DNA of 64,000 nucleotides from a virus (IMGVR_UViG_3300043104_000334), one strand, 5' to 3'; shown: positions 1 to 63,042, counted from the stretch's first letter. Numbers and translations are program-made. Notes: generated by a model from the letters alone, not told the origin.

Positions 1-489
1 GCCAATAAGCTTGTTACACAAGGAATCCCAAACATCTACCTCATCCAAAAGTTTCACAAGCAACTCCGCTCCAAATACATACCGCTCCCGGTCAAACATA
101 GATGTACCAATATCTGCATTGGATACCATAGCTCCTACCTCATTATCATAAACAACATTTCCGTTTATGATTCCGGATATCATGTCTGAGCTTAATCCAA
201 GTACAGTTCTCCATACCGGTGCTCCCCTACCTGCTAAGAAAGGATTAAGGACTCTGCATGTGAGGTCAATATACCCGACCCTTGTATATTTATCCTCGTA
301 TATCTTATCATTGCAGTTAGGGTCATCAGAATGGTCTGCCTTTCCGAAGATTGAGGATGACACAACGTTGTGCTCATAATTATACGCTGTGTCAAGCCGC
401 ACCATAGGAGCCGACGTAATTGACTGTCGTTCACTAGGGGCCATTCGCTTCTTATCATCTTTGTTTATTGGTCTAACAGAAATACTCAT
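1..489 (-). CDS. RNA polymerase beta' (RpoC)-like subunit, N-terminal part; runs off the window start (not in ORF track)
   Basis: Manual translation from ATG at 489 is open to position 1: MSISVRPINKDDKKRMAPSERQSITSAPMVRLDTAYNYEHNVVSSSIFGK...TRVGYIDLTCRVLNPFL...GAELLVKLLDEVDV. This matches RpoC motifs LFCERIFGP, RMGHIELAAPV and GAEAIRELLKRIDL in order. Lies downstream of the beta-like gene. Confidence 0.75.
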   Translation of the reverse strand, partial: MSISVRPINKDDKKRMAPSERQSITSAPMVRLDTAYNYEHNVVSSSIFGKADHSDDPNCNDKIYEDKYTRVGYIDLTCRVLNPFLAGRGAPVWRTVLGLSSDMISGIINGNVVYDNEVGAMVSNADIGTSMFDRERYVFGAELLVKLLDEVDVWDSLCNKLIG

Positions 490-492
490 TGT

Positions 493-1338
493 TTATACCA
501 ATCCCTTCCCGTAATCATGTAAAATCATTTCGAGTGCATGCTCATTTATCTCAGTCTTGTACACAAGTCTTAAGCCGTCAAGTCCTGAAACCGGAACTGC
601 ACAAGTAAAGAACTTTGATAAATCATACACTGTTCTACATGGCATTATGTTGTCATACCCTTCATCAAACAATGCCTGCGTATCTGCATAATCCCAGTAC
701 CCAGTACCTTTCTTGATGAACATGAATGTCGTGGCTACACCTGCACCCTCTCGTTTTAAATCGCAAATCTTAACGTGTGGCAACAACATCTCTGGATAAC
801 TCGCTGGCTCAACATAAGAGTTCTGTGTATACCAAACAGTATCCGTTCCAAGATAGGGAACCCTATCAGAATCCGGTGGTCCCTCATAATCACACATAAG
901 ACTACCGATTTCTTCTTTTGGCAACTTGAGAGCATTTGCGTGCCTTGTGCTAGCACGCATTGATGGCGAACGACCATGTCCCTCATCGAATTCCTTATTG
1001 TTCACAACCTCTTCATCAACACCGTAGAAGCAACCTTTTTCAGGGTTGATTCCACCATTCTCCACAGGAATGATATTACTCATAAGCATACCAAGTTCAA
1101 TGAGTGACATCCCATAGATATCATTCTGTCTGAACAATGAATGCTGATGCACATCGTCCCATCCATGATAGAACCCTATCACCCTCCAGTGTGGAATATT
1201 GTAGTCAAGCAAATCAGTTGAGAATCTGTTATAAACGATCATCAACTCATCTTTACTCAGCTGCTTGCTAAACTGTACAATACCATTTGATACCGTGCAG
1301 CCGGCAAAGCATTCCCCAACTAAAGATATTTCATTCAT
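493..1338 (-). CDS. Putative divergent RNA polymerase alpha (RpoA) N-terminal-domain-like protein
   Basis: Probable start is ATG 1338 (GGAGG RBS, ATGA overlap with upstream stop). Segments YNRFSTDLL..IPHWRVIGF, EMLLPHVKICDL..FIKKGTGY, IMPCRTVY and DGLRLVYKT parallel RpoA GNALRRILL..LPGAAVTAV, EILNPDLHIATL..VEKGRGY, IPVDSIF and DKLTLEVWT. Confidence 0.5.
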   Translation of the reverse strand: MNEISLVGECFAGCTVSNGIVQFSKQLSKDELMIVYNRFSTDLLDYNIPHWRVIGFYHGWDDVHQHSLFRQNDIYGMSLIELGMLMSNIIPVENGGINPEKGCFYGVDEEVVNNKEFDEGHGRSPSMRASTRHANALKLPKEEIGSLMCDYEGPPDSDRVPYLGTDTVWYTQNSYVEPASYPEMLLPHVKICDLKREGAGVATTFMFIKKGTGYWDYADTQALFDEGYDNIMPCRTVYDLSKFFTCAVPVSGLDGLRLVYKTEINEHALEMILHDYGKGLV

Positions 1339-2018
1339 GAAATTCCTCCCGTAATAATGTACCCAATTGCAACCGCAGCAATAGCTACAGCCCAAGCAGC
1401 ATAGGTACAAGATTTATTCTTTGTACGAAGTGTCATAAATCTAATGTTTCTCTTCGTGATTGGAAATAAGACTGGACATCCCTCTACAGTAAGCATATCA
1501 GCAAACAGATGTGAGCAATACCCAACACACAACCCAAGCACACTATACTTCCATAAAGGGAAGTCTGATACACCAATTGCAAAGTAAAGCAATACTGGTA
1601 CTAATAATGTGTGCATTAAACCCCTGTGTCTTGTTGCCCACTGGAATGTTTTGCTATTATAAATAAACTTCTTTGCAACGGCAATTATAATAAATCCAAT
1701 AGCAATAAGCATAAGCTTATCTGCTTCAATACCATAGTTCTTGAATCCAAGCATTGTAACTATTGCAAGTATTCCTGCAATGAGTACACCGGCTAAGATA
1801 AGTAAATTCAATGTCTTTGTCGTAAGGTTTGTAATCACCTTACGCTTTCTACCAATCTTAGTCATATCGTGGTCAATATCAGGAAGCATACATCCAACTG
1901 CCGAAGCAGGCAGGATAAGCAACCCATAAGGGTCACCATATCCTTTTGACACGATACACGCACCTGCTATTCCAAATCCTATTCCAACTACTTTATGTTG
2001 TACACCTGTCATAGCCAT
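1335..2018 (-). CDS. YdjM-family membrane-bound metal-dependent hydrolase
   Basis: Motifs H..G, LPDIDH, HRGLMH, SHLFADMLT.EG.P.LFP; several TM helices. Confidence 0.85.
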   Translation of the reverse strand: MAMTGVQHKVVGIGFGIAGACIVSKGYGDPYGLLILPASAVGCMLPDIDHDMTKIGRKRKVITNLTTKTLNLLILAGVLIAGILAIVTMLGFKNYGIEADKLMLIAIGFIIIAVAKKFIYNSKTFQWATRHRGLMHTLLVPVLLYFAIGVSDFPLWKYSVLGLCVGYCSHLFADMLTVEGCPVLFPITKRNIRFMTLRTKNKSCTYAAWAVAIAAVAIGYIITGGIS

Positions 2019-2079: not shown

Positions 2080-5000
2080 TTATTTCTGAAAACTTCCAAG
2101 GATTAGATTTGTTGCATTTTCAAACTCGTCATCTTCTTGACTTGCAACTGTGTCCTCGACAGCTTCAGAAGTATTACTCTTCACAGAGTTCTGCTTTTTG
2201 TTCGTATTCTTCTTGTACTGAACACTTGCCTGCTGAATAACACTAGGCTTCCAGTGCGCAAGCTGAGCACCATTATCCTTGTCAAGTGGAATGAACTCAC
2301 CATCATTAGGTTCACACATTACACCAAGTGCAAGGAAAGAATACAGAAACTGCGTAACTGCACGCCGCTGTCCGGGTGAGTCAATATGGTACTGCTTCCT
2401 GAGTTCGCCCGGGAAATATGTATCAATGTTGAAGTTATCTCTGGCAATGGCGTTATCACATCTTTCGTTTGTCAATTCATGTATATATGCAGATGCGCCA
2501 TAAGCACATAGCGCGTCAATCTCCATTGTACCAAATCTCTGTCCACCACCATTTGATGAACCGTGTGTAGGCGCATCTGTCATCTCACCATAAGGTTCCC
2601 AAATGTTCTGTCCGCCTCTTGCATGAATCTTCTTATGAGACTCCTGTATAAGCTTGAACACATGCAGATAAGCAACCACGATTTCTGTCTCAGTCATGTT
2701 TCCATCGTTATCCGGTAACATAACTTTTGTTGTGCCACGCTCATTGAAACATCCTGCATAAATACGAATGTCGTTGATAACCTCAACTAGATGTTGCTTG
2801 AAAGACTCAACGTGCTTTATGTGACTTTCATTAAGCAAATCACCATGTCTCAAGAATACAGCATTTAGGTCACCGGTAGAATTCATAAGGTCAACAGTAA
2901 GGGACATCAACATAGCAATCTCTTCCTCTGAAATACAGTTGTACGCATCTGATGAAAGTTTAAACTTGCACACATGAGAAAACAGCCCTGTATGAGATTC
3001 CTTTATCTGGCCAACATTCATACGTGAACCTACACCAAGTGGATTAAGACAAATATCCAATGGAAAACCATTTGCAAGACGTGGCATGTTAGATGTCTTT
3101 TCTTTCTTACTAAGAACACCTTTGTTACCATGTCGGTTAGACATCTTGTCACCACCACTAAACGGGTCGATAGAGACCGTATTCAGTGTCAAGCCATAAT
3201 TACCTGCTCTGTGTTCTGACTTGATAGAATCATATTTTTCATAGAATCCATAAGCCTTAGAAAGCGGAATATCTTTCTTCTTACTCTCCATGAATCGCCT
3301 ATCAGAGTAAGCAACACTAATTGAGCTACTAAGTTCCGGAGACATCCATCTACCGTTGTTTGATTTGCTCATACGGTAAGACCGAGTAGAGTTTGGGTTA
3401 CTTGTAAAGTCTTCCTTGTTGATTCTATAGGATGCAAGTCTGTTACACATTGATTCTGAAATATGCGCACCATCCTCATAATTGTAACCATCACAGATGT
3501 AACCAACAAGCGCATTACATCCAAGAGTTAAGATACCATTCTCAGAGATAAAATTTGAAGATACGAGCATCTGACCCTTATGGAATCTCTGCCCTACTTC
3601 AACGAGCACTTTCATCTTTGTTACAGAATAACCGCTATCAAAGTATTCATCAAACTGATAAATGGTACCATCAGAAATATCCTGTGAATCATACCGAACC
3701 GCAAGATGATACTTCTCTTCACGCCAGTTATATTCACATGTAACAACTGTACCGCTATCTTTTGCAATAATTCCAAACTTGTCGTTAAGCCATGCAAACT
3801 GCTCATAAGCACTCGTGATAACATCTGGTTCTTCTGCAAATACCAATCCCTTAGCCTGCTTCTCCTGTGCAACAGCAAAGATAGCACGCGCCGCATCATT
3901 ACTACTCATATACGGAATCGTGGATGACGCATAACTAAGCGACTGACTAGCATTGACATTGACGAAATCAACTTGACTGATAGGTCTGTATGCAAACGTA
4001 GATTTCTCGACAGAGTTTCTGGTGGGTACACGACACTGAACAATCTTAGTGTTATCCTTTACAACGTAATCACTGCCAAACTCAAGCGAGCAGATATCCG
4101 CAATTACATACCGCTCTTCATCCCGGCTAGTAAGAGGAATCTTCTTGTCAGTCTTAATAACTGACTGATTGCCAAGATGCTGTACTCTGTAATACAACGT
4201 AGACATCTTACCATCTGTAGAGATAACAGAGTCACAGCAGGAATTGTAAACTGTACCCATCTTCTGTGACTGCGGAATTTCATAAGCATCAATCTTCGCA
4301 TAAGAACCGATTGCAATTTCACGCTGAGAATCCGCAATGGAATGCTTGTTCGCCGTATAGACATTCACTTTTGTGCAAGCAGACTGATATGCAATAGGAT
4401 TATGGAGATTATCACCCTGCAACCGAACAATACATTTTGCTTCATCCCTAAGGTACTTCCAGAAGTTCTTTGTAAACGGATAGAATTCATTGTCGATTAA
4501 ATCGCGGTCAAGGAAATTCTGTCTCTTACCTTTATAGATTTCCTTGAACTTCCTATTCATTTGTTTGAATCCCTCACGGACTGCATAGCAGAATGCACGA
4601 TGGTACTGTTCCTCAATAGGAATTAAAACCTTTCTGAAACCTGCATCTGCATTTACAATTCGATCAATCCATTTGCCCTCAAACAACTTCACACAGAATG
4701 ATTGAAGTGCCATAAAGTCATACGTAGTGTAAGCACCATTAGCCGGTACAAAATCCTTGTCACAATTAAGGTAATACCAGTCACCATGTGGCTTACCAAT
4801 GTCTTTACCCCGGAACTGTCTGTTAGAGATAATCTCTTCGTAGAAGTTAAGAACTCTTACCTTTCCGCCGGACCTCTTGTCGCTCACCTTAATGGATTCC
4901 TTTCCATAAGCAACAATGACATCAAGCATATCGCTTGTAAGCTGTGTGCCTGATTCATAGATAATTGGTACCGGAAGTTTATCGTAGAACTTGGATGTAT

Positions 5001-6117
5001 ACATTCCATGCTCTTCCGGGAAATACTTTCGCAGCGACTTGGAAATTCTAAGACCTACAGGCGCAAACGGAATAAAGATATCTTCCGCCAGATAGAAACC
5101 CTCGATGTTTGGCACATACTTGATATAGAGTTTATAGACTCCATCGGCATTAAACAACCGAATCATATTACTGTCAACTACTTCACCAGCATGCGCAAGG
5201 ATTCTACCGTTTACAAGTTCCGACTCAACATCTCTTGCAAGTACCTCTCCAACAGCACGGTCAAGTGACAACAACTCATTCAAATCATCCCGAATAGCCG
5301 TATTGTCATAAGAGTCATCACCCTCACCATTCTCTTTGATACGCGTAAGAGTAAGCCTGGGAACGAGTTGTTTCTTGTAGTCGATACCATTTACGCTAGC
5401 AGAGTTAGCAACAATTCCACCAAGTCTCTGCTCTTTCTCTTCTTCATCCTTAAACATGTTAACAATGAAGAAGTTAGCAAACTCTTTAAAGAGTTCTTCT
5501 GGCTCATAGCCCTCATCCTTTGCCATTGCCACGATAAGGTCAAGCAACGTGTACTTAGTCTTAGACGACTTTCCACTCCGGTCAGACATCCGAATTTTTA
5601 ATGCGCTTGCATTATCATCAATCCAGATAGACCGAGTACCATTCTTAATCTTAAGACAAGCCGCCTTTGCAGTATTGTCATTTGCTTCGAACGATACCGT
5701 AGGCTCCTGCTCAAGCATATGTATGAATGCATACTGCTGGTTATCATACTCGATAATACCGTTCTCATAGACATGAGGAAGATTCATAACAGTGACGTCC
5801 TGAGCCTTATCAGGATTGAATCCCGGAATGTCAAACCTTACTGTAACATGATGTGTAAGGTCATTGTACTTTCCCGGGTCTACCTGTTTCACCTTGATTC
5901 TTTCAGCACTCGTTTTGAGCATATCAGGATTGCACTTAATAGCATTGATGAGAGCCGGCATGAACACGTTGAGTACATCCTCAACGGCCCGCTTATCCGT
6001 ATACTTCTTAAATGACTCGTAGACGGGACTTGGCTTCATGTCCGGTATAAGACTAGGTCTTGCAAGTTCATTCTGGTACGCGTATAATATATTTTTATTC
6101 TTGTCATAATCCAGCAT
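2080..6117 (-). CDS. Divergent DNA-directed RNA polymerase beta (RpoB)-like subunit
   Basis: PYMSSNDAARA..AQEKQA, GYNYEDG, GDKMSNRHGNKGV, DICLNPLGVGSRMNVGQIKE and GGQRFGTMEIDALCAYGA appear in canonical RpoB order; 1345 aa. Confidence 0.95.
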   Translation of the reverse strand: MLDYDKNKNILYAYQNELARPSLIPDMKPSPVYESFKKYTDKRAVEDVLNVFMPALINAIKCNPDMLKTSAERIKVKQVDPGKYNDLTHHVTVRFDIPGFNPDKAQDVTVMNLPHVYENGIIEYDNQQYAFIHMLEQEPTVSFEANDNTAKAACLKIKNGTRSIWIDDNASALKIRMSDRSGKSSKTKYTLLDLIVAMAKDEGYEPEELFKEFANFFIVNMFKDEEEKEQRLGGIVANSASVNGIDYKKQLVPRLTLTRIKENGEGDDSYDNTAIRDDLNELLSLDRAVGEVLARDVESELVNGRILAHAGEVVDSNMIRLFNADGVYKLYIKYVPNIEGFYLAEDIFIPFAPVGLRISKSLRKYFPEEHGMYTSKFYDKLPVPIIYESGTQLTSDMLDVIVAYGKESIKVSDKRSGGKVRVLNFYEEIISNRQFRGKDIGKPHGDWYYLNCDKDFVPANGAYTTYDFMALQSFCVKLFEGKWIDRIVNADAGFRKVLIPIEEQYHRAFCYAVREGFKQMNRKFKEIYKGKRQNFLDRDLIDNEFYPFTKNFWKYLRDEAKCIVRLQGDNLHNPIAYQSACTKVNVYTANKHSIADSQREIAIGSYAKIDAYEIPQSQKMGTVYNSCCDSVISTDGKMSTLYYRVQHLGNQSVIKTDKKIPLTSRDEERYVIADICSLEFGSDYVVKDNTKIVQCRVPTRNSVEKSTFAYRPISQVDFVNVNASQSLSYASSTIPYMSSNDAARAIFAVAQEKQAKGLVFAEEPDVITSAYEQFAWLNDKFGIIAKDSGTVVTCEYNWREEKYHLAVRYDSQDISDGTIYQFDEYFDSGYSVTKMKVLVEVGQRFHKGQMLVSSNFISENGILTLGCNALVGYICDGYNYEDGAHISESMCNRLASYRINKEDFTSNPNSTRSYRMSKSNNGRWMSPELSSSISVAYSDRRFMESKKKDIPLSKAYGFYEKYDSIKSEHRAGNYGLTLNTVSIDPFSGGDKMSNRHGNKGVLSKKEKTSNMPRLANGFPLDICLNPLGVGSRMNVGQIKESHTGLFSHVCKFKLSSDAYNCISEEEIAMLMSLTVDLMNSTGDLNAVFLRHGDLLNESHIKHVESFKQHLVEVINDIRIYAGCFNERGTTKVMLPDNDGNMTETEIVVAYLHVFKLIQESHKKIHARGGQNIWEPYGEMTDAPTHGSSNGGGQRFGTMEIDALCAYGASAYIHELTNERCDNAIARDNFNIDTYFPGELRKQYHIDSPGQRRAVTQFLYSFLALGVMCEPNDGEFIPLDKDNGAQLAHWKPSVIQQASVQYKKNTNKKQNSVKSNTSEAVEDTVASQEDDEFENATNLILGSFQK

Positions 6118-6129
6118 AACACTGCTCCT

Positions 6130-6552
6130 TTATACTAAGTTGAATTTGCGAAGTAAGTCTTCGTCAAGCTCCTCCATTTCATCAGCATCATACTCACCCA
6201 TGTTTGTCACTTCTGCAGGCAGTGAAACCGGAACGTTATCACCCTCACAAAGAGGTATAGCAGTGATATCACCAAGGTCATCAACAACCAAGATGATTTT
6301 CTGACCTGCACACACTACCGGCAAAGCAACCTCCCAGTCATCTCCACACTCTGAGATAATGGTCGAGAAATCTTTCTCCGTATTCATGAAGTTACTGAAA
6401 TCTTCAATACCAGAAATCTCAATAACCTTGAGTCCGCCGTAAGCCGTAAAGGCAACCTGTACAAAGTCACCACTAGCCTTTGCGAAGATGCTTTCATCGT
6501 CCTCACCCATGTTCGCAAACCCTACTACCTGTGTCCATTCATTTCTTAGCAT
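6130..6552 (-). CDS. Acidic hypothetical protein, first gene of the RNAP cluster
   Basis: 140-aa ORF with AAGGAGG RBS, downstream of a promoter-motif copy. Confidence 0.75.
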   Translation of the reverse strand: MLRNEWTQVVGFANMGEDDESIFAKASGDFVQVAFTAYGGLKVIEISGIEDFSNFMNTEKDFSTIISECGDDWEVALPVVCAGQKIILVVDDLGDITAIPLCEGDNVPVSLPAEVTNMGEYDADEMEELDEDLLRKFNLV

Positions 6553-6708: not shown

Positions 6709-9700
6709 TTAGTGTGTACCAGTTGTTGTCAAATCAGTCGTACTCGTATTGTATGCGTCATATACAACAAGAGGTGCCCATTTTGAGTCAATTTTGGTTA
6801 CTACTGTTCCGGTGGAAGAATATACATCAACTCCATTCTCACCTACTGTAATTGTATTGTTGTTACAATTATCTGGCTTATTGTCATTGCTGTAAAGCGT
6901 AATCTTATTATCTTTTCCACCATTCATCAGTCTCGCATCATATTCCAATTCATAGACACTACCCTGAACTGTAATACCAGCAAATGCAACAATAACCGAA
7001 TTCGGATGATCATTCTTAAGTTTTTGATTAGCTGTTAAGACTTCAGTCTTGGAAGTTGCTGCCCCTGCATATGTAGCAATTGTTGAGCTAGGTAAATTCA
7101 ATGTGAAATACCAACGCTGAGATTGCTTCATGAAATTAAGAGCTGTTACACCATTTCCTGTAGACCCACTCATTGCAGTACCGCCGAGCTGATTTGTACC
7201 AGTCCCTTCGGATGCATCTCCATAAAGATAAGATGAACCAATGTAGTCCAAATCATTACAATCAAGAACGATCTTTGATGCAGTACCGATATAATCATAT
7301 TTCTTATATGCAGCTTTATTTATGCCCCAATAAGATAATACAGTATCAGTATAACTCTCTTCAGTCGATGTTGTATTACGACGAGCCGCTTCAGTAGTAA
7401 GGTCAATAGAAAGACCTGTCTCAGTAAGCTTCTTCACATTAGCAGCACTGGTGTCACTATAATATAAAGTGTATGAACCAGAGCTACCAGCATAGAGGTC
7501 AATCGCATAAAACTTACCCTCACTGTAATCATATAGATAATAATGAGGAGTAATTGTCATAACGGCCGTTCTCGTATCTTCACCACTATTCTCATCCGCA
7601 ACTGATGACGGACCATCATCTCCACCAAATGAACCACCCTCAAGTGTATTGATACCATAATAATTACCAATAGTCTCAATATCAAAATAGGATGCATATC
7701 CAATCTTCAACTGTTCTGTTGAATAGGTAGAGTTACTCTGCAGAGAAGCTGCTGTCAATGGTAATGTACCCCACTCGCCTGCCTTACCTAATCCAGTTAT
7801 ACTACCATACCGATAATTGGTTACAGACAATGTAGCGTGTGATTGTGTCTGGGCCGTATGTCCTCTACTTGATAACATAATATCTGCAGTCGTAGTAAGA
7901 ATCTTTACTGGGTAACTCGAATCGACATTATGAACAACATTAGGAATAGACCATGAAGTTAGTGCTTTCTTAAATAATTCTGAATATCTAAAATCACCAA
8001 CATCTTCAAGAGCAAGATTTCCAATACGCCCAACAACCTCAATTGTAGTTGAACAATAAGTTGTATTATCTGCTACAAGGTTATAATCTCTTGTAATGTT
8101 TCTATTCTGATATTGATCAAAGTCGATATTCGAGCCAGCATTAATAGCTATCGTAGCAAATGTTACTGTTGCCGTAGTTGTTTCTTCAGCTGATGTAACA
8201 ACTTGGAATGAGTAATCAAGACCGTACTTAAATTCCGAATCACTTGACAGTGCATTTTGTAGAGCATCTGTCGCTCCATGGAATACACCTGAAGCTGCGT
8301 TAGTTAAACTACCATCTGAAGCTTTAGAAACAGAACCAGTATTGTTCTCAAGTGTATTACATCTATACTCAGAAAGATTTATCCAAGTATTTGCAGGTAT
8401 GGTGACAGTATCACCATTGACCTTTGTACCAATAACCGGGAATGTAAACATAACATCACGTTCTGCAACCCATCTGCCAGTATTCATATTGTTAGTATAA
8501 CCCTTAGCATTTGAGTTGATTTTTCCGGTATTAGAGTCAGCACCATTATAAGTGCATCCAACACCTAGAGATGCTGTAGCTACGCCGGCAATAGAGTCAC
8601 CATACGCATCATAGAAGTCACCGAAATCAGTTATCCATAAATGGACTGTATTTCCTATGACAACGTAGTTATTTTTGTTTGCTTCAGCAACGCCCTGCGT
8701 ACTTACTCGCATATCCTCGCCAGTCTCATCCTCAGCAGGACCGTTTCCATCATAGTCTCCGTATCCATTTCCAATTAACTGAGAATACTGAGAAGATACT
8801 GGGTCATGAATAAGAACATCGTTAAGAACACCATTATCAGAATCTGGTGAAAGCTTTGCTACATACTCAGTTTTTCTATCAGCCGTAATCTTTGGAGCAC
8901 TTACCTGTTCACTATCAACACACTGCTGACACAATGATTGATTACTGAAATCAAGTGCAAGATTATAATAAACATTCACACCGATAGGTGAAGTGTAAAC
9001 ACCATTTTTCGCAGTCTGAATCATTGAAATGTTACTAATTACTAATGCAGTACAATAATTAATTGTTGAACCATCACTAGTGTTTGTGTAACCTGAAACA
9101 TTTCCTGCTCCATTGTTGCTGACATTGGATCCACTACTTATGAGACTACCATTCAAGTATCTATTTACAGTAAAGCTTCCAATATTCGGATATGCAAATG
9201 TTGTATAATAACCATTGAATGTTTGTGTCTGTGCCGTTCCCTCACTCTTCGACACAAAATTTGTTCGTCCCGGTACTGTACTTGTTATTGGTACTGTTCT
9301 ACTATAACACGTTGCTACTATTATGTTGCTATTCTGTGACCATTTTTCACCATTTGTTACATATCCAGATAAGGTAGCCTTTGATAAAGAATCAATAAAT
9401 GATTCTCCTCTAATGATACCGTCAGATGAATATTTTACAGATGGATTAGAAGATACATGTCCAGTATAACCAACGTATAATGTTTTTGCATCGTTAAGAT
9501 TACCAACGTCATCATACTTATCCCAAAATACATTAGTGTTTAGTGTATTCTGCAATTCTTCTGCAGTACCGTATTTATTTGCATGATTGCGGTAATAAGT
9601 CTGTCCGTTCTCAGTAAATCCAAAATTAAACAGATTTATACCACTGTCGATAGCATAAGACTCAGCAAGAATATTCTGAGAACCAACGTTCGCAACACTA

Positions 9701-12700
9701 ATAGACATTGCATCTGAAATAATGTTAGCAGTATAACCGTTTTCTACACTGTTAGCACATTCCCATGCATTTACAACATGAAGTGCCTCTGTTAACGCTT
9801 GGTCGTCTGTTAAAACGTCACCAATCTTACTCTGGTAGTTTGTGTTACCATGACTGCTGTCCGCGTTCCAATGTGCTGTCTGCTTACCATAACTCTTACT
9901 AATAGACACACTATCAATTGCTCCACTATTCGCAAGAGTTCCTACAGAGTTGTCTGCAACAACAGTCATACTGATAGTACAATTTCCTAACCAATAATGT
10001 TCAGCACCATTGTCTCCAGACACAGTTGTAGATGTCCATCCATCTCCACTCTTGTACTGCGGACTTTTGAATTTCGTAAACCAAACTCTACCATTCGAGC
10101 CATTATAATCACCATTGGCTTTCCACATATCAACAGAGATATTTGTGTTGGAAGATGCTTGGCCTACAGCGCTACTCGATATTAAACTCGTATTTACGCT
10201 AGCTATTTCAGCACGCTCAAGTGTATAAACCTTAGCACTTAACAACTCTCGATAAGCATATACATCAACAGTCTCAACAAGTGAAAATGTAAATGTTTTT
10301 GTAGCCGGGTGAATTATATTCTGCGTGGCATGTGTTACTGTACAACCGTATCCAGCTGTATATCCATCACACGTTAATGTATCAGCTGTATAAGTGTATC
10401 CACTATAGGTTTTTGTACCAATCTTTACTGAACAAGCAGTAAGTAAATATCTTTGCTTATTACTTGTTGATGTTGGAGCTGTAACAGACTTTGAAGCTAC
10501 GCTTCCATCCCCTGACGCAGTCACATCACCAGTTGAACAATTGAATGTCACCGTGTAGTTACATGTATGCCCAGATGCTCCCCATGTTGGGTCTACGCCA
10601 CCACTAGCAGTAATTGTAAGAACTGTACCGCAACCTGCACAAGCACTAGAACTCTTCTGTTCTCCATTACCAGCTGACCACTTAGCAGAAGCAGTAAATC
10701 CAGCCACAGAAGTCGAATATGTTACACCATCCTTCGTGCATGTATGTGTCTGACCTGTTGCCGAAGCCATTACACCACCGCGTGTCGATTGCGTACCTGT
10801 CGCCCCACATGTATCACATGACCATGTATTAGTCAGACCGTTAGCATCTGCCGTGCCACTCTTTTCAGTCACATTCTGCGATTTTGAACCAAGTGTGTGC
10901 CCCGGACAACTAAGCGTACATCTTGCATTACTATCCTTACTACTAGCCCAAATATCAGTGATAGTTACCTTGAACTTTATAGTACGCGTGATAGCAGCAT
11001 TCTTGTTTTGTGCATTCTGAGTATCACTCTTATTGTTCTTGTACAATGCGTCTGACGTTTTTAACTGTTGACCATAGGCATGTATACGCCCGCTAAGGTC
11101 AATAGAACAAACACGACCACCTGCAGCTACTGCAAGGTTTTCAGTACTAGGGATTCCCTCAGATACATTCCAATCAGAAGCTAGGCCATCGTATGTGTTG
11201 CTCTTTGTTCCAGCACAGTTAGCGACTATCTCTGCATAGGCTTCAATATCACTTGTTGTACTGAATGTCCAGTCAATATGGTCAACTACATCCGGTCCAA
11301 CCCAGTCATTATAACTGTGACCAACATTATTGGTGTCATTTTCCAAACACCAGTAAGCATCACTACAATCTTCTATATCTGTTGGTATTACACTCGTTGA
11401 ATTAATTGTCACCGTGAACGAAGCAGGTGCTGACATATGACCAGCCTTTTCAGTCTTACTAGTACTCTGAGCAAGCTCTGATATATCAATATAATACTGT
11501 TGTTTTAACAGCTTTTTCAGTTCCGTTCCAGTAACAGTAAATTTATACGTACTAGTAGCACCCTTACTTGATGATGCACTAAACGACACATACGTACCAA
11601 TTGCTTCACTGTGCTTTGTTACTTCATCATATGTAGAAGAAGTACTAGCTCCTCTTATGTACATTCCCTTTATCAGACCGCTTACTCTCGGAGTCGGGGA
11701 TTTATCACATATACTATATTTTGGTGTTGCTTGTACAACTACTGTATATGACGCACTAGTATTCACGGCTTCTAGAGTATCATTATCAGCACCCAAATAT
11801 AATGCAAATGTTGCATTTTGATACTCTCCTTCAGTCAAGACTGTCTCTTCTTCGTGAACACTACTGAGTACACTGAAAGTATAGGATGTCGGACGGTCAC
11901 CAGTACTAAAGCAGTTATGACTTATTTCATTACCTACATCGAAATACTTGTCATAGTACAATATCTTGTTGCCAGTAATTTTTGCAGCTGAAACTGAGAC
12001 ACGCTTATCCTCAGAATCAGTATGCTTTTTAATACTAACTGAGAACTTTACGGAGCTAGCAAGAACAGTAGCATTCTTATTACCTTTTACCTTCTGAATA
12101 AATGATATTGGGTTCTCCTGATTAATTAATTGTTTAATCGCTACTTCATTTGCAGTAAATTGTAATGTTGCTGTCTCACCATAACTTCCAGATGCACTAA
12201 ACTCAATTCCTGATATCCCATTTGTACTCTTAAACTTGTATGCAGTTATCATACTTTTTGCATACGTTGTGTTTTCAGAATCACATGTTCCTTTGTTATA
12301 CTTGTTTGTATTGATTGATATGGAGATATCGTAACTTCCACTTCCAGTTATATTGTCTTTTGTACTATCTGCTGCATCAAAATACATAGTAAACTTAGTT
12401 GACTGTGCAGTACCAGTATACAACTTTGTTTTCGTAAGATGGTTTGTACTTTTTATGGAATAACTAAAATCACCAGCACTCGTGGCTTTCCAGCAGTTAT
12501 GGTTTGTTTTGCTGGTTGCTGACCAGTAGGGATCTACAGAATCACCGTTTTTATCTGTTGGCGCATCAACAGCTGTTACACTGTCGGTACTCGTCACACT
12601 TACAGTAAACTTAAGGCTGTGTGATAATACAGTACAGTCAGCATCCTTGACTCCAAAACTCAATTTAATACCGTCGCCTTTATCACCAAGGTAACCAGCA

Positions 12701-14076
12701 AGTTCTCCACCAGACATACCTTCATATACAAATGTAAGCTTACCATCAACTGTCTTCTTTTCAAATCCCTTTGGAGCAGTAGAAGTATAAGCCTCCACTT
12801 GAGTGGATGAACTGTCACATAGTAATTTCTTACTTAATGTTGTGGGCTCAACAGTTATTGTCACATTATAGCTGTCATTATAGTACTGGCCCTTTTTCTT
12901 AAAGTCTGCAATACTTGTATCTTTACCAACATCTAAATGTACTGTAAATATAGATTCCTGCGCAGTTTTATCAGTAAAGTCAGCCGCAGTGAGATGGTCT
13001 GTTGATGTTACATAGTATGTTAAATTTGGTTGGTTTATCTCCGCTTCCTCATCACAATTGAATACTCCGAAGTAACCACGTGCATAATAGTTCATACTAT
13101 TATACTTTACATACTGTGTACCGCACCATTGTTTCTGCGAACTGCCACCACTAGCTACTACACCCCAGCCCCGTTCATGACCATGATTATGCTGACCATC
13201 TAACCATGCTCTACAATATACATGTGCGTAAGTATTAACTGTACATTTGTTCTTCACTACATCTTTCATGAAGTCTGAAACACTTGAATAGCCTGTAGTC
13301 CAAGCGCTTCCATTACCAATATTCTTTAATATTTGTGATGGTTGATACACATTGATACCACCATCTGAGTACTTTTCTACAAATCCTACAGTCCATGTTA
13401 TGACTGGTAACTTATAATCTGGATACTTATTAGGGCTCTTGTACCAAGCTTTGAAGTTTGTAGCTACATCATCACCAGCAAGTGCTTTTAACACTGCCAC
13501 ATATGTGGTAATCTTATGTTTCTTAGTAGTACTATCATACGGAAATAAGTAGTCACTTATATCATTCTTACTTCCCCATAATATTTTCTGAATCAGTGTC
13601 TTAACTGTAGTATCAGTCACAGACGCTGTCGTCCAGTTATTACTACTATTAACCGTAAATTGTAACAGGTCAGCATTTGGAAGATAATCACTACTACCCA
13701 CAAGATACCCATATACATCTACTCCACTCGATATATTACCAGAATATACGGTATCACTATCTGATAACTTTTTACCAGTAGCCGCTCTCTGATTTACAAT
13801 AGTCTCTGCATCTGCCTCTAATCCATTCATGTTATCACGGCTGCTACAATACGTTGAAAGGTCAAGAGATGATATATAATCTACTTTTATTATAACTGCC
13901 GGACCGGCTTTTGCAATAGTTCCTGAACCACTCCAAGTGCTTGCATTTGCTGATTTACCATCATGAGAGCTTATTGACCCTCCATCACCGGCGCCATATG
14001 CAATAACACTTCCAGCACCAACTAATGCACATATGAGGAACATCAATGCTAATGATTTTTTAAGAATCTTTTTCAT
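6709..14076 (-). CDS. Giant secreted Ser/Thr-rich protein, probable Tad-pilus-associated adhesin
   Basis: N-terminal signal peptide, three ~190-aa internal repeats, Cys-rich segment, C-terminal ...TTGTH, no LPXTG; last gene of the pilin-like run. Confidence 0.7.
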   Translation of the reverse strand: MKKILKKSLALMFLICALVGAGSVIAYGAGDGGSISSHDGKSANASTWSGSGTIAKAGPAVIIKVDYISSLDLSTYCSSRDNMNGLEADAETIVNQRAATGKKLSDSDTVYSGNISSGVDVYGYLVGSSDYLPNADLLQFTVNSSNNWTTASVTDTTVKTLIQKILWGSKNDISDYLFPYDSTTKKHKITTYVAVLKALAGDDVATNFKAWYKSPNKYPDYKLPVITWTVGFVEKYSDGGINVYQPSQILKNIGNGSAWTTGYSSVSDFMKDVVKNKCTVNTYAHVYCRAWLDGQHNHGHERGWGVVASGGSSQKQWCGTQYVKYNSMNYYARGYFGVFNCDEEAEINQPNLTYYVTSTDHLTAADFTDKTAQESIFTVHLDVGKDTSIADFKKKGQYYNDSYNVTITVEPTTLSKKLLCDSSSTQVEAYTSTAPKGFEKKTVDGKLTFVYEGMSGGELAGYLGDKGDGIKLSFGVKDADCTVLSHSLKFTVSVTSTDSVTAVDAPTDKNGDSVDPYWSATSKTNHNCWKATSAGDFSYSIKSTNHLTKTKLYTGTAQSTKFTMYFDAADSTKDNITGSGSYDISISINTNKYNKGTCDSENTTYAKSMITAYKFKSTNGISGIEFSASGSYGETATLQFTANEVAIKQLINQENPISFIQKVKGNKNATVLASSVKFSVSIKKHTDSEDKRVSVSAAKITGNKILYYDKYFDVGNEISHNCFSTGDRPTSYTFSVLSSVHEEETVLTEGEYQNATFALYLGADNDTLEAVNTSASYTVVVQATPKYSICDKSPTPRVSGLIKGMYIRGASTSSTYDEVTKHSEAIGTYVSFSASSSKGATSTYKFTVTGTELKKLLKQQYYIDISELAQSTSKTEKAGHMSAPASFTVTINSTSVIPTDIEDCSDAYWCLENDTNNVGHSYNDWVGPDVVDHIDWTFSTTSDIEAYAEIVANCAGTKSNTYDGLASDWNVSEGIPSTENLAVAAGGRVCSIDLSGRIHAYGQQLKTSDALYKNNKSDTQNAQNKNAAITRTIKFKVTITDIWASSKDSNARCTLSCPGHTLGSKSQNVTEKSGTADANGLTNTWSCDTCGATGTQSTRGGVMASATGQTHTCTKDGVTYSTSVAGFTASAKWSAGNGEQKSSSACAGCGTVLTITASGGVDPTWGASGHTCNYTVTFNCSTGDVTASGDGSVASKSVTAPTSTSNKQRYLLTACSVKIGTKTYSGYTYTADTLTCDGYTAGYGCTVTHATQNIIHPATKTFTFSLVETVDVYAYRELLSAKVYTLERAEIASVNTSLISSSAVGQASSNTNISVDMWKANGDYNGSNGRVWFTKFKSPQYKSGDGWTSTTVSGDNGAEHYWLGNCTISMTVVADNSVGTLANSGAIDSVSISKSYGKQTAHWNADSSHGNTNYQSKIGDVLTDDQALTEALHVVNAWECANSVENGYTANIISDAMSISVANVGSQNILAESYAIDSGINLFNFGFTENGQTYYRNHANKYGTAEELQNTLNTNVFWDKYDDVGNLNDAKTLYVGYTGHVSSNPSVKYSSDGIIRGESFIDSLSKATLSGYVTNGEKWSQNSNIIVATCYSRTVPITSTVPGRTNFVSKSEGTAQTQTFNGYYTTFAYPNIGSFTVNRYLNGSLISSGSNVSNNGAGNVSGYTNTSDGSTINYCTALVISNISMIQTAKNGVYTSPIGVNVYYNLALDFSNQSLCQQCVDSEQVSAPKITADRKTEYVAKLSPDSDNGVLNDVLIHDPVSSQYSQLIGNGYGDYDGNGPAEDETGEDMRVSTQGVAEANKNNYVVIGNTVHLWITDFGDFYDAYGDSIAGVATASLGVGCTYNGADSNTGKINSNAKGYTNNMNTGRWVAERDVMFTFPVIGTKVNGDTVTIPANTWINLSEYRCNTLENNTGSVSKASDGSLTNAASGVFHGATDALQNALSSDSEFKYGLDYSFQVVTSAEETTTATVTFATIAINAGSNIDFDQYQNRNITRDYNLVADNTTYCSTTIEVVGRIGNLALEDVGDFRYSELFKKALTSWSIPNVVHNVDSSYPVKILTTTADIMLSSRGHTAQTQSHATLSVTNYRYGSITGLGKAGEWGTLPLTAASLQSNSTYSTEQLKIGYASYFDIETIGNYYGINTLEGGSFGGDDGPSSVADENSGEDTRTAVMTITPHYYLYDYSEGKFYAIDLYAGSSGSYTLYYSDTSAANVKKLTETGLSIDLTTEAARRNTTSTEESYTDTVLSYWGINKAAYKKYDYIGTASKIVLDCNDLDYIGSSYLYGDASEGTGTNQLGGTAMSGSTGNGVTALNFMKQSQRWYFTLNLPSSTIATYAGAATSKTEVLTANQKLKNDHPNSVIVAFAGITVQGSVYELEYDARLMNGGKDNKITLYSNDNKPDNCNNNTITVGENGVDVYSSTGTVVTKIDSKWAPLVVYDAYNTSTTDLTTTGTH

Positions 14077-24046: not shown

Positions 24047-24129
24047 TTGCCTGTCTCTCCATTAATTAAGTAATTAACCTAAAGTCTAAAATAGGCATTC
24101 TATCAGCTTAATGTTTTGAACTGATAAAG

Positions 24130-24203
24130 TGGACCATATAGGACTTGAACCTATGACCAACCGGTTATGAGCCGGCCGCTCTCACCAACTGAGCTAATGG
24201 TCC
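24130..24203 (-). tRNA. tRNA with CAT anticodon, probably tRNA-Ile2; CCA not encoded
   Basis: GGACCATTAGCTCAGTTGGTGAGAGCGGCCGGCTCATAACCGGTTGGTCATAGGTTCAAGTCCTATATGGTCCA folds as a cloverleaf; GGACC acceptor stem resembles Firmicutes Ile2 rather than fMet. Confidence 0.9.
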
Positions 24204-36087: not shown

Positions 36088-37095
36088 TTAATCACTCCTT
36101 TTCATTTTAGATTTATTGATATACATTTCTTTATCAGCTTCCTCATACATCTCCTGATAGGTCTTCTTACCAGTAGTATTAGAAGCTTTACCAAATGCAA
36201 CTTTGATATCAATGTCCATAGCCATTATTGTTTCATCTGTGTTACATGCCACATAGAGTTCCTGCATAAGTTCATCAACGTTTTTCTGCTTTGTAACAAC
36301 TATAAACTCGTCACCACCTATACGTACTTCCCAAGTCTCATCATACATATCACAAATTCGTTTTAACTGTGCACCAACACGAATAAGGACAACATCACCT
36401 TGAGTGTGTCCAAGAGTATCATTAACACTCTTGAAATTATTAACATCACCAAGAATAATGCTAACATCTTTACTTTTGAAGAAATCAAGCTCAATAAGGT
36501 TGTTGAGAAACTTTCTATTCCAACATCTTGTCATTGTATCAATAAGAGTCTCTTCCTCAAGTTTATCAATCTTATTAAGACTCTGCAAAACAGGTACCTG
36601 CCCAAACCTTGAATAGATAGCTACAAGGAATGTACAAGCAATTGCAATTTCAGCCTCAGTCAATGAATAATCTTTCCTAAGGAATACATGGACAACACAA
36701 GCAATTATTGTGTTAAATAATGTTACAGACGTGATTAAAGTGAGCAACATTTGGTGTCCATACATTACTGCCAACATTAGCATAGGGTAGATGTACACGA
36801 ATGTTATACAATAGGGACTTGTGAGCATTGTATACAAATGAAATATCAAATATATGCTAAATGCAATATAAGCATATGCTATCTTTGTATCTAACATATA
36901 AGAATACAGAATGATATAAAGCACCATCATACCAGCTAAGACAGCAATGTATGTAACCACATAAGTAAGACTTCTATTCCCTTTTATATACTCAAAGTAA
37001 TATGCAATTACCAAGACAGTACTTATAACAAGAAATCCCATCAGTAATAACATATTACGTAATCTTACTGCTGGGATACTAAATAGCTTATTCAA
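36088..37095 (-). CDS. Membrane-anchored diguanylate cyclase (GGDEF)
   Basis: About 5-6 TM helices; DTMTRCWNR, DVNNFKSVNDTLGHTQGD, RIGGDEF. Confidence 0.92.
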   Translation of the reverse strand: MNKLFSIPAVRLRNMLLLMGFLVISTVLVIAYYFEYIKGNRSLTYVVTYIAVLAGMMVLYIILYSYMLDTKIAYAYIAFSIYLIFHLYTMLTSPYCITFVYIYPMLMLAVMYGHQMLLTLITSVTLFNTIIACVVHVFLRKDYSLTEAEIAIACTFLVAIYSRFGQVPVLQSLNKIDKLEEETLIDTMTRCWNRKFLNNLIELDFFKSKDVSIILGDVNNFKSVNDTLGHTQGDVVLIRVGAQLKRICDMYDETWEVRIGGDEFIVVTKQKNVDELMQELYVACNTDETIMAMDIDIKVAFGKASNTTGKKTYQEMYEEADKEMYINKSKMKRSD

Positions 37096-37997
37096 AAATC
37101 GACCTCCTTGAATTTAAACCCAACAATGCTGTCATCCTTTGCATAGAGGATACTCAACTTATAATAGTTGTCTGGGTTAATATAAAATATATACTTGTCT
37201 GATTTAATGTCATCAGTACTAGCATATACTAACTCACCCTTATCGTTTTTGTAATAAGCATAAGTTTTCTTTTCTTCTATATAATAAGCATCTGACTTAT
37301 TTTCGTCAGGTACCGCTCCCCTTAATACATACCCTATATTCTTACAGGTTTGACTTCCATGTCGTGATACAATTGCTTTTGTCTGTATAAGATAAGCAAG
37401 TTTATAATCACTCGTTTTATCAATAAATTTTGTCACCTGTTTACCAGTCATAATAGCACCATCAACAAGATTGAGACTATCACTATCAAATACCTTAGAT
37501 TTCCTAACTTGACTCTCAGCAAGAAGTTCATCTAATGTTGGTGTTGTTACGTCCGGTATACATGACTGTAGCTCAGATATTTTATCTCCAAATGTTATTG
37601 TATTTACAAGGTTATAGGTGTTTGTGTATACGAGATTTTCATAATCTACCCTAACATTTAATAATAACGTAAATAGACCGATTATTAAGGCGACAGCTAT
37701 AATAAGCTGTGTTATAAACCTATAACTGAAATACCTCTTATAGGTTACTTTAATTTTTGTATGTGCAATAATTATCAATGCAAAGATGTTAAGGAGCGGA
37801 ATAGCCATAAGGATATGAAGTACTACCATAGGCACACCACCCAAATCCTCATCGTCTAATGGCTCTAAAACAAGTCCGTCTTTCTTCTCGGCATCAATAT
37901 CTTTTTCTTCGTACAACTTACGACAATCAACACAGTAGTACATATCAGTTGATTCATCATATTCAAGGTCGTATCCACCACACCTTTTGCATCTCAT
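37092..37997 (-). CDS. Zinc-ribbon membrane protein with pilin-like C-terminal domain
   Basis: CKRC..CVDC, two TM helices, C-terminal similarity to 17081-17776. Confidence 0.65.
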   Translation of the reverse strand: MRCKRCGGYDLEYDESTDMYYCVDCRKLYEEKDIDAEKKDGLVLEPLDDEDLGGVPMVVLHILMAIPLLNIFALIIIAHTKIKVTYKRYFSYRFITQLIIAVALIIGLFTLLLNVRVDYENLVYTNTYNLVNTITFGDKISELQSCIPDVTTPTLDELLAESQVRKSKVFDSDSLNLVDGAIMTGKQVTKFIDKTSDYKLAYLIQTKAIVSRHGSQTCKNIGYVLRGAVPDENKSDAYYIEEKKTYAYYKNDKGELVYASTDDIKSDKYIFYINPDNYYKLSILYAKDDSIVGFKFKEVDF

Positions 37998-38007
37998 ACG
38001 TAGTCTC

Positions 38008-38496
38008 CTAGTACAGTAGACTTGTTTTACCTGTCCACTTATTTGTTAATGCCTCAACTGCATTTCGGTCAAATGGAGTTTTTGACATTTCGTAATCTAA
38101 TTCAATCCATCGTTCCGGACAATTAGCCAGTGCAACTGCACGTGTATAGACTATATTATCTTCAATGGTTTCTTGTGACACATCAGCGTCATCATTTGGT
38201 TTCTTTAATGTTTTCTTGTAGCTATCCCTAGGCACATTATACCTAATCATCAAATCACGCTCAGCTTCTTCTTCCGTAGAGAAGTGATACCACATTTTAT
38301 GCATTTTCACAACTCCACCATGAGCATGACATTTACCGAAACAAGACCATCTTCCTGTCGCTATATTATAGGAAAATGACGGCGTATTTTCACTATGAAA
38401 TGGACAACATTGTTTTGGCGAAACAACAAGGTCAACATCTTTATTTATATGCTCAGCATAATATTCTGGCACAGTAGGCAATCTTCCAGATACCAT
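38008..38496 (-). CDS. Stand-alone CHC2 zinc-finger (primase zinc-binding domain) protein
   Basis: CPFHSENTPSF......WSCFGKC. Confidence 0.85.
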   Translation of the reverse strand: MVSGRLPTVPEYYAEHINKDVDLVVSPKQCCPFHSENTPSFSYNIATGRWSCFGKCHAHGGVVKMHKMWYHFSTEEEAERDLMIRYNVPRDSYKKTLKKPNDDADVSQETIEDNIVYTRAVALANCPERWIELDYEMSKTPFDRNAVEALTNKWTGKTSLLY

Positions 38497-39200: not shown

Positions 39201-39989
39201 TTAGATATTAGCCTCAAAGAGTTTGTACAAATCCTCGTTAGGTAATGCAAATACAACTTTTTTGTAAAGCTTGCCATAAGACTGCAATGTCTTAGCAAAC
39301 ACTTTTGCAACAAACTCCGGATTGTTTCTAAATACACCACATCCCCATGCGCCGAGGATTAGGGTATCACATCCGTTAAGGTAGGGTAGCGTCACTATCG
39401 CTTCAATACGATTCGTAATAGCAAGATCAACATATCTCGCTTTCGATATTGGTACCCTATTACAATTTGGTGCCGCACACGATATCACATCAAACAACAC
39501 TGGTGCTGTAATGCTACCTCTCGCCATTGTAAACGGGACAGCTGGACTGTAAATTACTTCATCTAGATATGTCTCCGGCATATCCTTTCTCTTTGCACGA
39601 GCCTTGTAAATAATCATTGAATCCAAGATAGGATACAATCCCGACACATGACAAAGTGATTCTTCCTGCGCATAGGAACCTTTTAAGAACCCACCACCCG
39701 GCTTAAAATAGGATGCGAAATTGAGTACACAGATTTGTCTGTCTCCCTCACCATAACAATCTAACGCTACCTCATATGTTGGCTTTCTTATAAACGAGAT
39801 GTGCGTCTTGTCAGGAACAGAATCCGCTTTTGTGTCTATATACTTCCACTCATCCTCTGTAATAAGCTGACCGATTCTAGCAAAGGATTTCTCTTTTGAG
39901 TTCTCAATTGCTGCTCTAAATACAGCATGATTGTTTATCATACCCAACCATACTTCAGCTTGTTTTGCATTATCTTCTTTCTTAGACAT
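39201..39989 (-). CDS. TIGR02452-family macrodomain (bacterial PARG-like)
   Basis: VLNFAS..PGGGF.KGS.AQEESLC, DVISCAAPN, LILGAWGCGVFRN. Confidence 0.9.
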   Translation of the reverse strand: MSKKEDNAKQAEVWLGMINNHAVFRAAIENSKEKSFARIGQLITEDEWKYIDTKADSVPDKTHISFIRKPTYEVALDCYGEGDRQICVLNFASYFKPGGGFLKGSYAQEESLCHVSGLYPILDSMIIYKARAKRKDMPETYLDEVIYSPAVPFTMARGSITAPVLFDVISCAAPNCNRVPISKARYVDLAITNRIEAIVTLPYLNGCDTLILGAWGCGVFRNNPEFVAKVFAKTLQSYGKLYKKVVFALPNEDLYKLFEANI

Positions 39990-40002
39990 TTCATGTCTCC
40001 TT

Positions 40003-40545
40003 TTAAATTTCATTTTTATTGACCCATTCTACCGGGCACGAACAGTTTCCATAATACCAGTGCAGGAACATATTTCTATCAGTAACATAATCTATTTTAC
40101 CCTGTTTATACAACAATTGCAATGCTGCTAGAGCCCTAGCATTACAAACTGGAGTCTTGTCCGGATTATGAAATAAATCATAAAAGGAACCCTGACTCAA
40201 GGCATAATCAATTTGTTTTTCACTGAGACTAGTAAGGTACAATAAATCATGACACCCCATCGGCAAGTAATCTTTGTAAGGAGAATCATCGAGTAATTTC
40301 CATATGTCTCTCATTGGATTACCTTTTGAATCTTTTACATAACATGTAGCTAGGTTTCTTGCCTGATAGATACCAGATGCAGACGATACATCTATACACG
40401 GTTCCATAAATGAGAGCACAGAACTCTCAATCTCTTTCCTGCATAATATTTTGCTTACCTCAAGAGCATCCTTATCCCATTGTACATCAACTGTTCTTGT
40501 ATAAAGCTGATTATTCTTTATGAAATAAATACATCTCTTAGCCAT
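40003..40545 (-). CDS. DarT1-associated NADAR-like (DUF6977-like) protein
   Basis: MAKR..F, IDVSSAS..ARNL, FYDLFHNPDK..VCNARALA resemble that family's LEISSKS..LSAFNL and FTDIEFNP.KSINCQA motifs (recalled, unverified). Confidence 0.5.
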   Translation of the reverse strand: MAKRCIYFIKNNQLYTRTVDVQWDKDALEVSKILCRKEIESSVLSFMEPCIDVSSASGIYQARNLATCYVKDSKGNPMRDIWKLLDDSPYKDYLPMGCHDLLYLTSLSEKQIDYALSQGSFYDLFHNPDKTPVCNARALAALQLLYKQGKIDYVTDRNMFLHWYYGNCSCPVEWVNKNEI

Positions 40546-43757: not shown

Positions 43758-44261
43758 TCATAAATTTATAAGCTTATCTAAATTGCAGATAGGGATATTC
43801 TTTCCCTTACAATAAGACATGTCATATGCCGCTGTACGGTCGGCATATGTATTGCCGGCGTTATCAGCATGTCCCTTAACCCAGATATAATTTATCTTAA
43901 GATTAGGAACCTGCTCAAGGATATCCCTTACAGATTTAACAAACCATTGTGTAGCCGGCTTATTTGTCTTCCACCCGCCTGTAAGCCATTCACCAACTCC
44001 CTTGTAATCATAGATAAGGTCAAGCTGGTAAGTATCCATCAATTCTTCGTTCTTCTTCTGTACGTTAGCAGCCACAGACGTAATAGCGGACCAAGCTGCA
44101 AGCACCTCTCCACCAACATTTCGCATAGACACAAATGCAGGGTTTGTACACTTAATGTGAATCTGGCTTACTGGAGCATTGCCATTCCAAAATACGATTC
44201 CGCCGTGCACCTCACCGTTGTCTCCAAAACTACCATCTGTGTAAGCAATATACTTTTGCAT
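43758..44261 (-). CDS. rnhA: Ribonuclease HI
   Basis: AYTDGSF, RNVGGE, YDYKG, WVKGHADNAGNTYAD. Confidence 0.9.
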   Translation of the reverse strand: MQKYIAYTDGSFGDNGEVHGGIVFWNGNAPVSQIHIKCTNPAFVSMRNVGGEVLAAWSAITSVAANVQKKNEELMDTYQLDLIYDYKGVGEWLTGGWKTNKPATQWFVKSVRDILEQVPNLKINYIWVKGHADNAGNTYADRTAAYDMSYCKGKNIPICNLDKLINL

Positions 44262-60848: not shown

Positions 60849-60869
60849 ATAGGGAGAAATTCTCCCTAT
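60849..60869 (-). terminator. Hairpin overlapping the VirB4-like stop codon
   Basis: ATAGGGAGA / TCTCCCTAT. Confidence 0.5.
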
Positions 60870-62950: not shown

Positions 62951-63042
62951 AAATATAGCCTCCTTCAAAAACAATTCTTAGCTGAATAATCCAATAGCAC
63001 TGTGCTCATCTCATCAGCAAATTCGTATTCATGTTCTAAGCT

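Follow-up and report, generated by a model that had tools for sequence, protein, structure and literature searches.

A predicted alpha-NTD-like protein encoded between unsplit RNA polymerase beta and beta' genes on a mobile element

To our knowledge, every cellular multisubunit RNA polymerase (RNAP) uses an alpha-type platform. The archaeal D subunit and the eukaryotic Rpb3 and AC40 subunits act as heterodimers with L, Rpb11 and AC19, respectively, and residues 1-235 of E. coli alpha are said, after Igarashi and Ishihama and Hayward et al., 1991, to suffice for core assembly and basal transcription. Among the multisubunit RNAPs of bacterial viruses, only those of phiKZ and AR9 are well studied, and they stand out by having no alpha; in enzymes of this type, beta and beta' come divided among four or five polypeptides, and there is no alpha or omega homolog (PMC7598289; PMC13282480). 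Nor did the literature searched yield any description of a phage or a bacterial mobile element that encodes an alpha homolog, and an RNAP alpha homolog goes unmentioned in further jumbo-phage papers searched, including PMC7824862. Here, we describe a gene which, with a probability that we put at about 0.8, encodes an alpha assembly subunit consisting of the N-terminal domain (NTD) only and belonging to an element-encoded, bacterial-type RNAP. This reading draws on the predicted fold of the protein, on weak sequence matches, on operon context, on selection, and on the absence of the C-terminal domain (CTD) throughout the family.

The gene is located at positions 493..1338 on the minus strand of a 64,000-nucleotide stretch of viral DNA (IMGVR_UViG_3300043104_000334), hereafter called the window, in which all genes lie on the minus strand and GC skew is negative throughout. 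It encodes 281 amino acids plus a stop codon, corresponding to a protein of 31.8 kDa with a pI of 4.84, and its annotation is based on the open reading frame (ORF) and its translation, on relatives, on a structural model and fold matches, and on dN/dS. The frame runs from an ATG at 1338-1336 to a TAA stop at 495-493. A longer frame, initiated at a TTG, extends to 1410; we rejected this start, as the same methionine (ATG 1338) begins all homologs and a Shine-Dalgarno motif, GGGAGG, can be read from the sequence at 1345..1350 on the minus strand, 6 nt 5' of the ATG. The start codon shares nucleotides with the TGA that ends the upstream gene, which encodes a YdjM-like protein (ATGA), and the beta' gene begins about 3-4 nt past the TAA, so that the gene is part of a tightly coupled operon. 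Among orthologs, dN amounts to 0.26-0.30 and dS is saturated; the one ratio that could be computed gives a dN/dS of 0.07, and the closest pair shows synonymous differences only. The gene is under purifying selection and constitutes constrained protein-coding sequence. The gene pointed out in the sequence-only reading is a real one, as shown by its 281-residue ORF, its ribosome-binding site, the selection acting on it and the existence of relatives.

These relatives form a sizeable family. A word-indexed search yielded 23 close relatives of 269-294 residues (33-98% identity), encoded on contigs of up to 207 kb, and a profile search of 1.84 billion representatives returned at least 135 distant ones, counted as clusters at 50% identity. 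Many of the latter are short forms of 217-250 residues, whose match to the profile is limited to its N- and C-terminal thirds. Two alignments were used in the analyses below, one comprising the 23-sequence family (A1) and one with 111 members (A2). None of the 23 close relatives carries a Pfam domain or a name, and no relatives were found in IMG/VR, INPHARED, PLSDB plasmids or GTDB representative genomes. The window protein itself gave no match in Pfam (E <= 0.1) or in PHROGs. It lacks the canonical RpoA signature, PF01193 together with PF01000 above the gathering score, and PF01000 is touched by a single one of the 111 relatives, with an E-value of 0.011.

A template-free AlphaFold2 model, computed from A1, which contains no recognised RpoA sequence, reached a pLDDT of 91 and a pTM of 0.90. 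The search of such a model against RpoA and Rpb3 had been named beforehand as a check on the proposed similarity to alpha, and it turned out positive with both Foldseek and VIA-align. Foldseek found 338 matches in the PDB at E <= 0.001, the best with an E-value of 7.2e-8 and a probability of 1.00; all 49 of the matches listed, out of the 338, were bacterial RNAP alpha chains, with TM-scores by target of 0.5-0.59. VIA-align, which is independent of Foldseek and was run against 48,161 representative chains, gave the top rank to the alpha of E. coli (4yln_A; 195 residues at Z 9.8 and an rmsd of 3.8 A), aligning residues 9-281 of the model with residues 12-225 of alpha. The alpha subunits of C. 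jejuni, plastids and cyanobacteria followed at Z 9.2-8.2 and that of F. tularensis at Z 7.1; archaeal D, Rpb3 and AC40 came after the bacterial alphas, at Z 6.0-5.1, and unrelated folds, in which just about 80 residues aligned, set in at Z 5.2. In the ESM Atlas, a shape search returned alpha clusters only (TM 0.51-0.52), and a feature search gave no usable match. The best matches in BFVD, a library of viral structures, were giant-virus Rpb3 proteins, with E-values of 7e-5 to 8e-4.

The model shows the two-domain organisation of an alpha NTD: the two ends of the chain together build domain 1, which has two long helices, and domain 2 forms an insert between these ends. At the start, two short strands and a helix comprising residues 29-44 correspond to strands 1-2 and helix H1 of alpha; at the end, two strands lead into a terminal helix, residues 266-280, equivalent to alpha helix H3. 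The enlargement of domain 2 accounts for the moderate TM-scores (0.4-0.59). According to this model, the protein is predicted to possess an alpha-NTD fold, as found in the RpoA/Rpb3/D superfamily.

At the level of sequence, the protein is about 10-14% identical to bacterial alpha. The sequence-only reading had pointed to alpha-like segments in colinear order; these are real but weak in sequence, and two motifs could be placed colinearly. In an ungapped profile-profile scan, family residues 76-90 scored highest on E. coli alpha 75-89, a placement with z 4.0 that ranks 42nd among 59,274, and family residues 203-217 scored highest on alpha 141-155. The first pair shares a helix motif, S-[YL]-x-E-L in the family and E-D-[VI]-x-E-I in alpha, the second a loop motif, K-G-T-G-Y in the family and R-G-R-G-Y in alpha. 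Both placements are colinear with the structural alignment, and between motifs two and three the family has about 60 residues more than alpha. The N-terminal helix LRxDLLxxxIPH resembles LRRILLSSxPG of alpha in an ambiguous register, and the C-terminal helix is matched to alpha by structure only. We take R45 of E. coli alpha to be a beta-binding residue; for the equivalent helix of the family, the register is likewise ambiguous (an offset of 3 or 4), and no arginine is conserved at this place in the clade of the window protein.

Support from profile methods was marginal in strength but pointed the same way. With hhalign against an alignment of 11 bacterial RpoA sequences, family residues 182-221 aligned with alpha 121-159, the region of the GRGY motif, at an E-value of 0.0097 and a probability of 4%, and global mode returned nothing. 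A path obtained at low mact, which laid the family helix 75-96 on alpha H1, was rejected, since its ungapped z is -1.2 and placement on alpha H2 ranks 42 of 59,274. Among PDB sequences, the best matches of the A2 profile were alpha subunits (8dkc_A, E 0.0048; 7l7b_A, E 0.038), and a profile built from the short forms only again placed these two first, but at E 0.13-0.22; the A1 profile had no match among PDB sequences. The 11 bacterial RpoA sequences stem from bacterial contaminants in the phage collection, a search for homologs of E. coli RpoA having given only near-identical enterobacterial sequences, useless for a diverse profile. Several records labelled as phage, among them OR846589.1, OR848276.1, OR849874.1, MT836419.1 and CAKLQH020000003.1, carry bacterial rpoA and rpoB with ribosomal-protein genes as neighbours, and these neighbours identify the records as bacterial contamination. 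Such records are a useful source of diverse RpoA and, at the same time, a trap in searches for phage-encoded RNAP.

As the fold is a prediction and no sequence-family match is significant, one may ask whether the resemblance is merely structural, arising by convergence or as a model artefact in a protein whose role is unrelated to RNA polymerase. We consider this the least probable of the readings discussed here. Over 195 residues, the match takes in the two domains in their proper order, and it lies well above unrelated folds; the same family emerges from three independent libraries (the PDB searched with Foldseek, BFVD and the ESM Atlas), and the weak sequence matches, which are independent of the model, rank alpha first. 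Moreover, the conserved position of the gene between those for beta and beta' would hardly have come about by chance.

The three parts of the protein can be delimited approximately. The N-terminal part of domain 1 comprises residues 1-49 (1192..1338, minus strand), as judged from the secondary structure of the model, the VIA-align superposition and the LRxDLL...IPH motif. Residues 50-239 (622..1191, minus strand) form the enlarged domain 2, corresponding to the Rpb3/RpoA insert domain, according to segment placement, hhalign and the PDB profile matches; it holds the S-x-x-E-L helix at residues 76-90 together with the K-G-T-G loop at 209-214. Residues 240-281 (496..621, minus strand) make up the C-terminal part of domain 1, as indicated by the model, by conservation and by the alignment to alpha up to residue 225.

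An insertion in the middle of the protein had also been proposed, and there is indeed one in domain 2: the two motifs are separated by 129 residues, compared to 68 in E. coli alpha. Alignment occupancy and region lengths place this lineage-specific insertion at residues ~97-180 (799..1050, minus strand). In A2, occupancy drops to 0.1-0.45 over residues 100-165, and the middle region has a family median of 106 residues versus 146 in the window protein. The insertion is missing or much shorter in the relatives of 217-250 residues, which match the profile in two stretches.

The proposed absence of a CTD was borne out as well, for the window protein and for the family. The protein stops at the last helix of the NTD, residues 266-280 of 281, and is aligned to alpha through residue 225. 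In the 111 relatives, C-terminal extensions have a median length of 2 residues and a maximum of 50; as no tail is longer than this, there is no room for a CTD, and PF03118, the alpha CTD, does not occur among the matches listed for these relatives. The best explanation for these results is that the protein is a highly diverged, remote homolog of the N-terminal (assembly) domain of bacterial alpha. We would place it in the RpoA/Rpb3/D superfamily and would not file it as RpoA, because it lacks both the Pfam signature and the CTD and is encoded in an operon unlike that of rpoA.

On one side of the alpha-like gene lies the gene for beta', of which the window contains the first 163 codons up to its edge (1..489, minus strand). 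This fragment is 70% identical to the N-terminus of beta' in four related loci, here L001-L004, whose beta' proteins of 1267-1268 residues possess the Pfam Rpb1 domains 1, 2, 4 and 5 and a NADFDGD motif; across the related loci, orthologous beta' is a single ORF of 1176-1268 residues. On the other side, beyond the YdjM-like gene, an unsplit beta gene of 1345 codons (2080..6117, minus strand) is recognisable by PF00562 (E 8e-34), PF04560, and the motifs GDK..HGNKG and SRMN.GQ. Searched by tblastn against the phage collection, this beta gave only distant matches of about 22-30% identity, mostly to bacterial rpoB in mislabelled records. Both large catalytic subunits are co-encoded with the alpha-like protein, in the window as well as in nine related loci. 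All nine, as far as each reaches, retain the succession beta, YdjM-like, alpha-like, beta', down to about 25% identity to the window protein, for example in L005 and L008.

The YdjM-like gene (1335..2018, minus strand) encodes a multi-pass membrane protein, recognised by PF04307 (E 6e-25) and its hydrophobic segments. It is found between the beta and alpha-like genes in L001-L006 and L008 (L001:9318-10010, L002:9327-10001, L005:7342-8028, L006:1233-1913, L008:1511-2125) and in part in L007, which begins inside the gene; L009 begins too near the alpha-like gene to show it. We know of no membrane protein gene at a corresponding place in cellular RNAP operons. The protein might tether or regulate the polymerase, and the element's polymerase may be tied to the membrane via this product of its own operon.

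Two small genes accompany the polymerase genes. Directly upstream of beta, in a position conserved in L001-L005, lies a gene for an acidic protein of 140 residues (6130..6552, minus strand) with a pI of 4.05 and an acidic C-terminal tail, whose model (pLDDT 86) consists mostly of beta-strands; it is possibly an accessory RNAP factor. We considered it as a partner of the Rpb11, L or omega type and rejected it, its confident model having no match (Foldseek E >= 0.3, VIA Z <= 3.8). Directly after beta', an ORF of 107-127 codons without Pfam match is conserved, followed by an M23 peptidase gene (L001:14665-14988, L002:14661-14987, L005:12256-12639); its product might conceivably be an omega-like or another small subunit.

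These small genes raise the question of whether the alpha-like protein could be the larger, Rpb3/D-like half of a heterodimeric platform, with either the 140-residue protein upstream of beta or the 107-127-residue protein downstream of beta' as its Rpb11/L-like partner, which would bring the element's enzyme nearer to archaeal and eukaryotic platforms than to the bacterial alpha homodimer. Archaeal D and eukaryotic Rpb3 and AC40 do match the model, at the Z-scores given above, and are likewise devoid of a CTD, and in every long related locus the polymerase genes lie between the two small conserved ORFs. However, bacterial alpha chains score clearly higher (Z 9.8-8.2 versus at most 6.0 for D and Rpb3), and both beta and beta' are of the bacterial type. 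Of the two candidate partners, the downstream one has no Pfam match, and the largely beta-stranded model of the upstream one has no clear fold match, though it may nevertheless have an Rpb11-like fold. Altogether, we consider a heterodimeric platform unlikely.

Another possible role is directed at the host: as a mimic of the alpha NTD, the protein could bind host beta or beta' or heterodimerise with host alpha, and would in this way either poison the assembly of host RNAP or generate CTD-less hybrid polymerases that ignore host activators. Phages and mobile elements often target host alpha, as exemplified by T4 Alt, ModA and ModB and by phiKMV Rac (reviewed in PMC7824862), and a CTD-less architecture would suit a dominant-negative protein. 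Yet translational coupling links the gene to the beta and beta' genes of the element itself, between which it always lies, and the low identity to bacterial alpha (about 10-14%) makes a faithful mimicry of host interfaces unlikely. In addition, the family has diverged as much as the cognate beta and beta', to roughly 25-33% identity between distant loci. A decoy function therefore seems to us very improbable.

If the protein is an assembly subunit of the element's own polymerase, it would be co-translated from one operon with the unsplit beta and beta'. Two copies would dimerise via the N- and C-terminal helices of domain 1, as in the cellular enzyme, one protomer docking beta and the other beta', and the dimer would nucleate an alpha2-beta-beta' core able to transcribe the element's genes independently of host RNAP. 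From the comparison with bacterial alpha, we infer dimerisation, binding of beta and beta', and independence of host alpha. The most conserved residues of the family, L269, I272, L273 and Y276, lie on the terminal helix, with L269 and I272 conserved also in the wider family; as to homodimerisation, the conservation of these two residues is suggestive only. A complex prediction for two copies, made with A1 and run without controls, gave a score of 0.00, a value that speaks neither for dimerisation nor against it. As the protein ends with the NTD and has no alpha-CTD, the polymerase should respond neither to UP elements nor to class I and CTD-contacting activators, and promoter choice would rest on other factors. 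On a larger scale, it appears fairly likely that a large and varied family of uncultured giant mobile elements, represented by contigs of 150-207 kb and at least 135 clusters of alpha-like proteins, encodes a complete and self-contained RNAP core of the bacterial type, composed of unsplit beta, beta' and a CTD-less alpha homodimer.

With regard to promoter recognition, a scan of about 54 window ORFs gave no Pfam match to the Sigma70 family. A protein of 301 residues (37092-37997, minus strand) carries a sub-threshold match to the TFIIB-type zinc ribbon PF08271 in residues 1-38 (E 3.4e-5; bit score 23.8, cut-off 29) and, given the lack of a Sigma70-family match in these ORFs, is a candidate initiation factor. 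Directly upstream of the polymerase block lies an ORF of 2455 codons (6709-14076, minus strand), with relatives of about 1,900 to more than 2,000 residues at the same position in related loci. It has no Pfam or PHROG match and no DFDGD motif; lacking this motif, it is not a beta' subunit.

The remainder of the window, in which we saw no capsid or terminase gene among the ORFs scanned, encodes on the minus strand a GGDEF diguanylate cyclase (36088-37095), a DnaG-type (primase) zinc ribbon (38008-38496), a DnaB-like helicase (42043-43452), an RNase H (43758-44261), a TraG/VirB4-like P-loop ATPase (60866-62974) and a single tRNA-Met (CAT; 24129-24203). The element thus combines replication and transfer-like machinery of its own with its own transcription genes, and cell-wall hydrolase genes are present in the window too. 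Two adjacent, overlapping genes (39201-40545, minus strand) encode a PARG of the microbial type (PF10021, E 8.5e-25) and a NADAR domain protein (PF22397, E 2.3e-6), a pair that looks like a system for the reversal of ADP-ribosylation and possibly serves in counter-defence against DarT-like systems.

If our reading is true, the protein described here would be the first alpha subunit to be found beyond cells and the viruses of eukaryotes, and part of a natural, minimal transcription machine that is independent of the host and blind to its UP elements and activators. It would represent a natural experiment with a minimal, CTD-less alpha, paralleling the sufficiency of alpha 1-235 in vitro, and a compact polymerase of three proteins might serve as a host-independent transcription system. 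The gene would also provide a structural handle with which metagenomes can be searched for this unclassified element family.

Compared with known systems, the protein is closest to the NTD of bacterial RpoA (E. coli residues 1-235), with which it shares the same predicted two-domain fold and order as well as colinear motifs, and like RpoA it is encoded along with bacterial-type beta and beta'. It differs from bacterial RpoA in having neither linker nor CTD, in scoring below every Pfam threshold, and in possessing a domain 2 that is larger by about 60 residues. Moreover, while E. coli rpoA is part of the rpsM-rpsK-rpsD-rpoA-rplQ operon, the alpha-like gene is located between rpoB- and rpoC-like genes, and on a mobile element rather than on a chromosome. 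Archaeal D and eukaryotic Rpb3 and AC40 have the same superfamily fold and are platform subunits naturally devoid of a CTD; they match more weakly than bacterial alpha, however, and no partner of the L, Rpb11 or AC19 type was recognised in the element. The Rpb3/Rpb11-like subunits of nucleocytoplasmic large DNA viruses, such as ASFV, pithoviruses and mimiviruses, are likewise non-cellular assembly subunits of the alpha superfamily, with ASFV 8q3b_C matching the model at Z 4.1, but they belong to eukaryote-type polymerases of eukaryotic viruses, whereas the protein described here is nearer to bacterial alpha. With the RNAPs of the jumbo phages phiKZ and AR9, finally, the element has in common bacterial-type beta and beta' encoded by a large non-cellular genome and a presumed independence of host transcription; in contrast to the split, alpha-less organisation of these enzymes, it carries an alpha-NTD homolog as well as unsplit beta and beta'. 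An alpha NTD combined with unsplit beta and beta' would constitute an intermediate state between cellular and jumbo-phage polymerases, which bears on the origin of mobile-element RNAPs and on the extent to which they have been stripped down.
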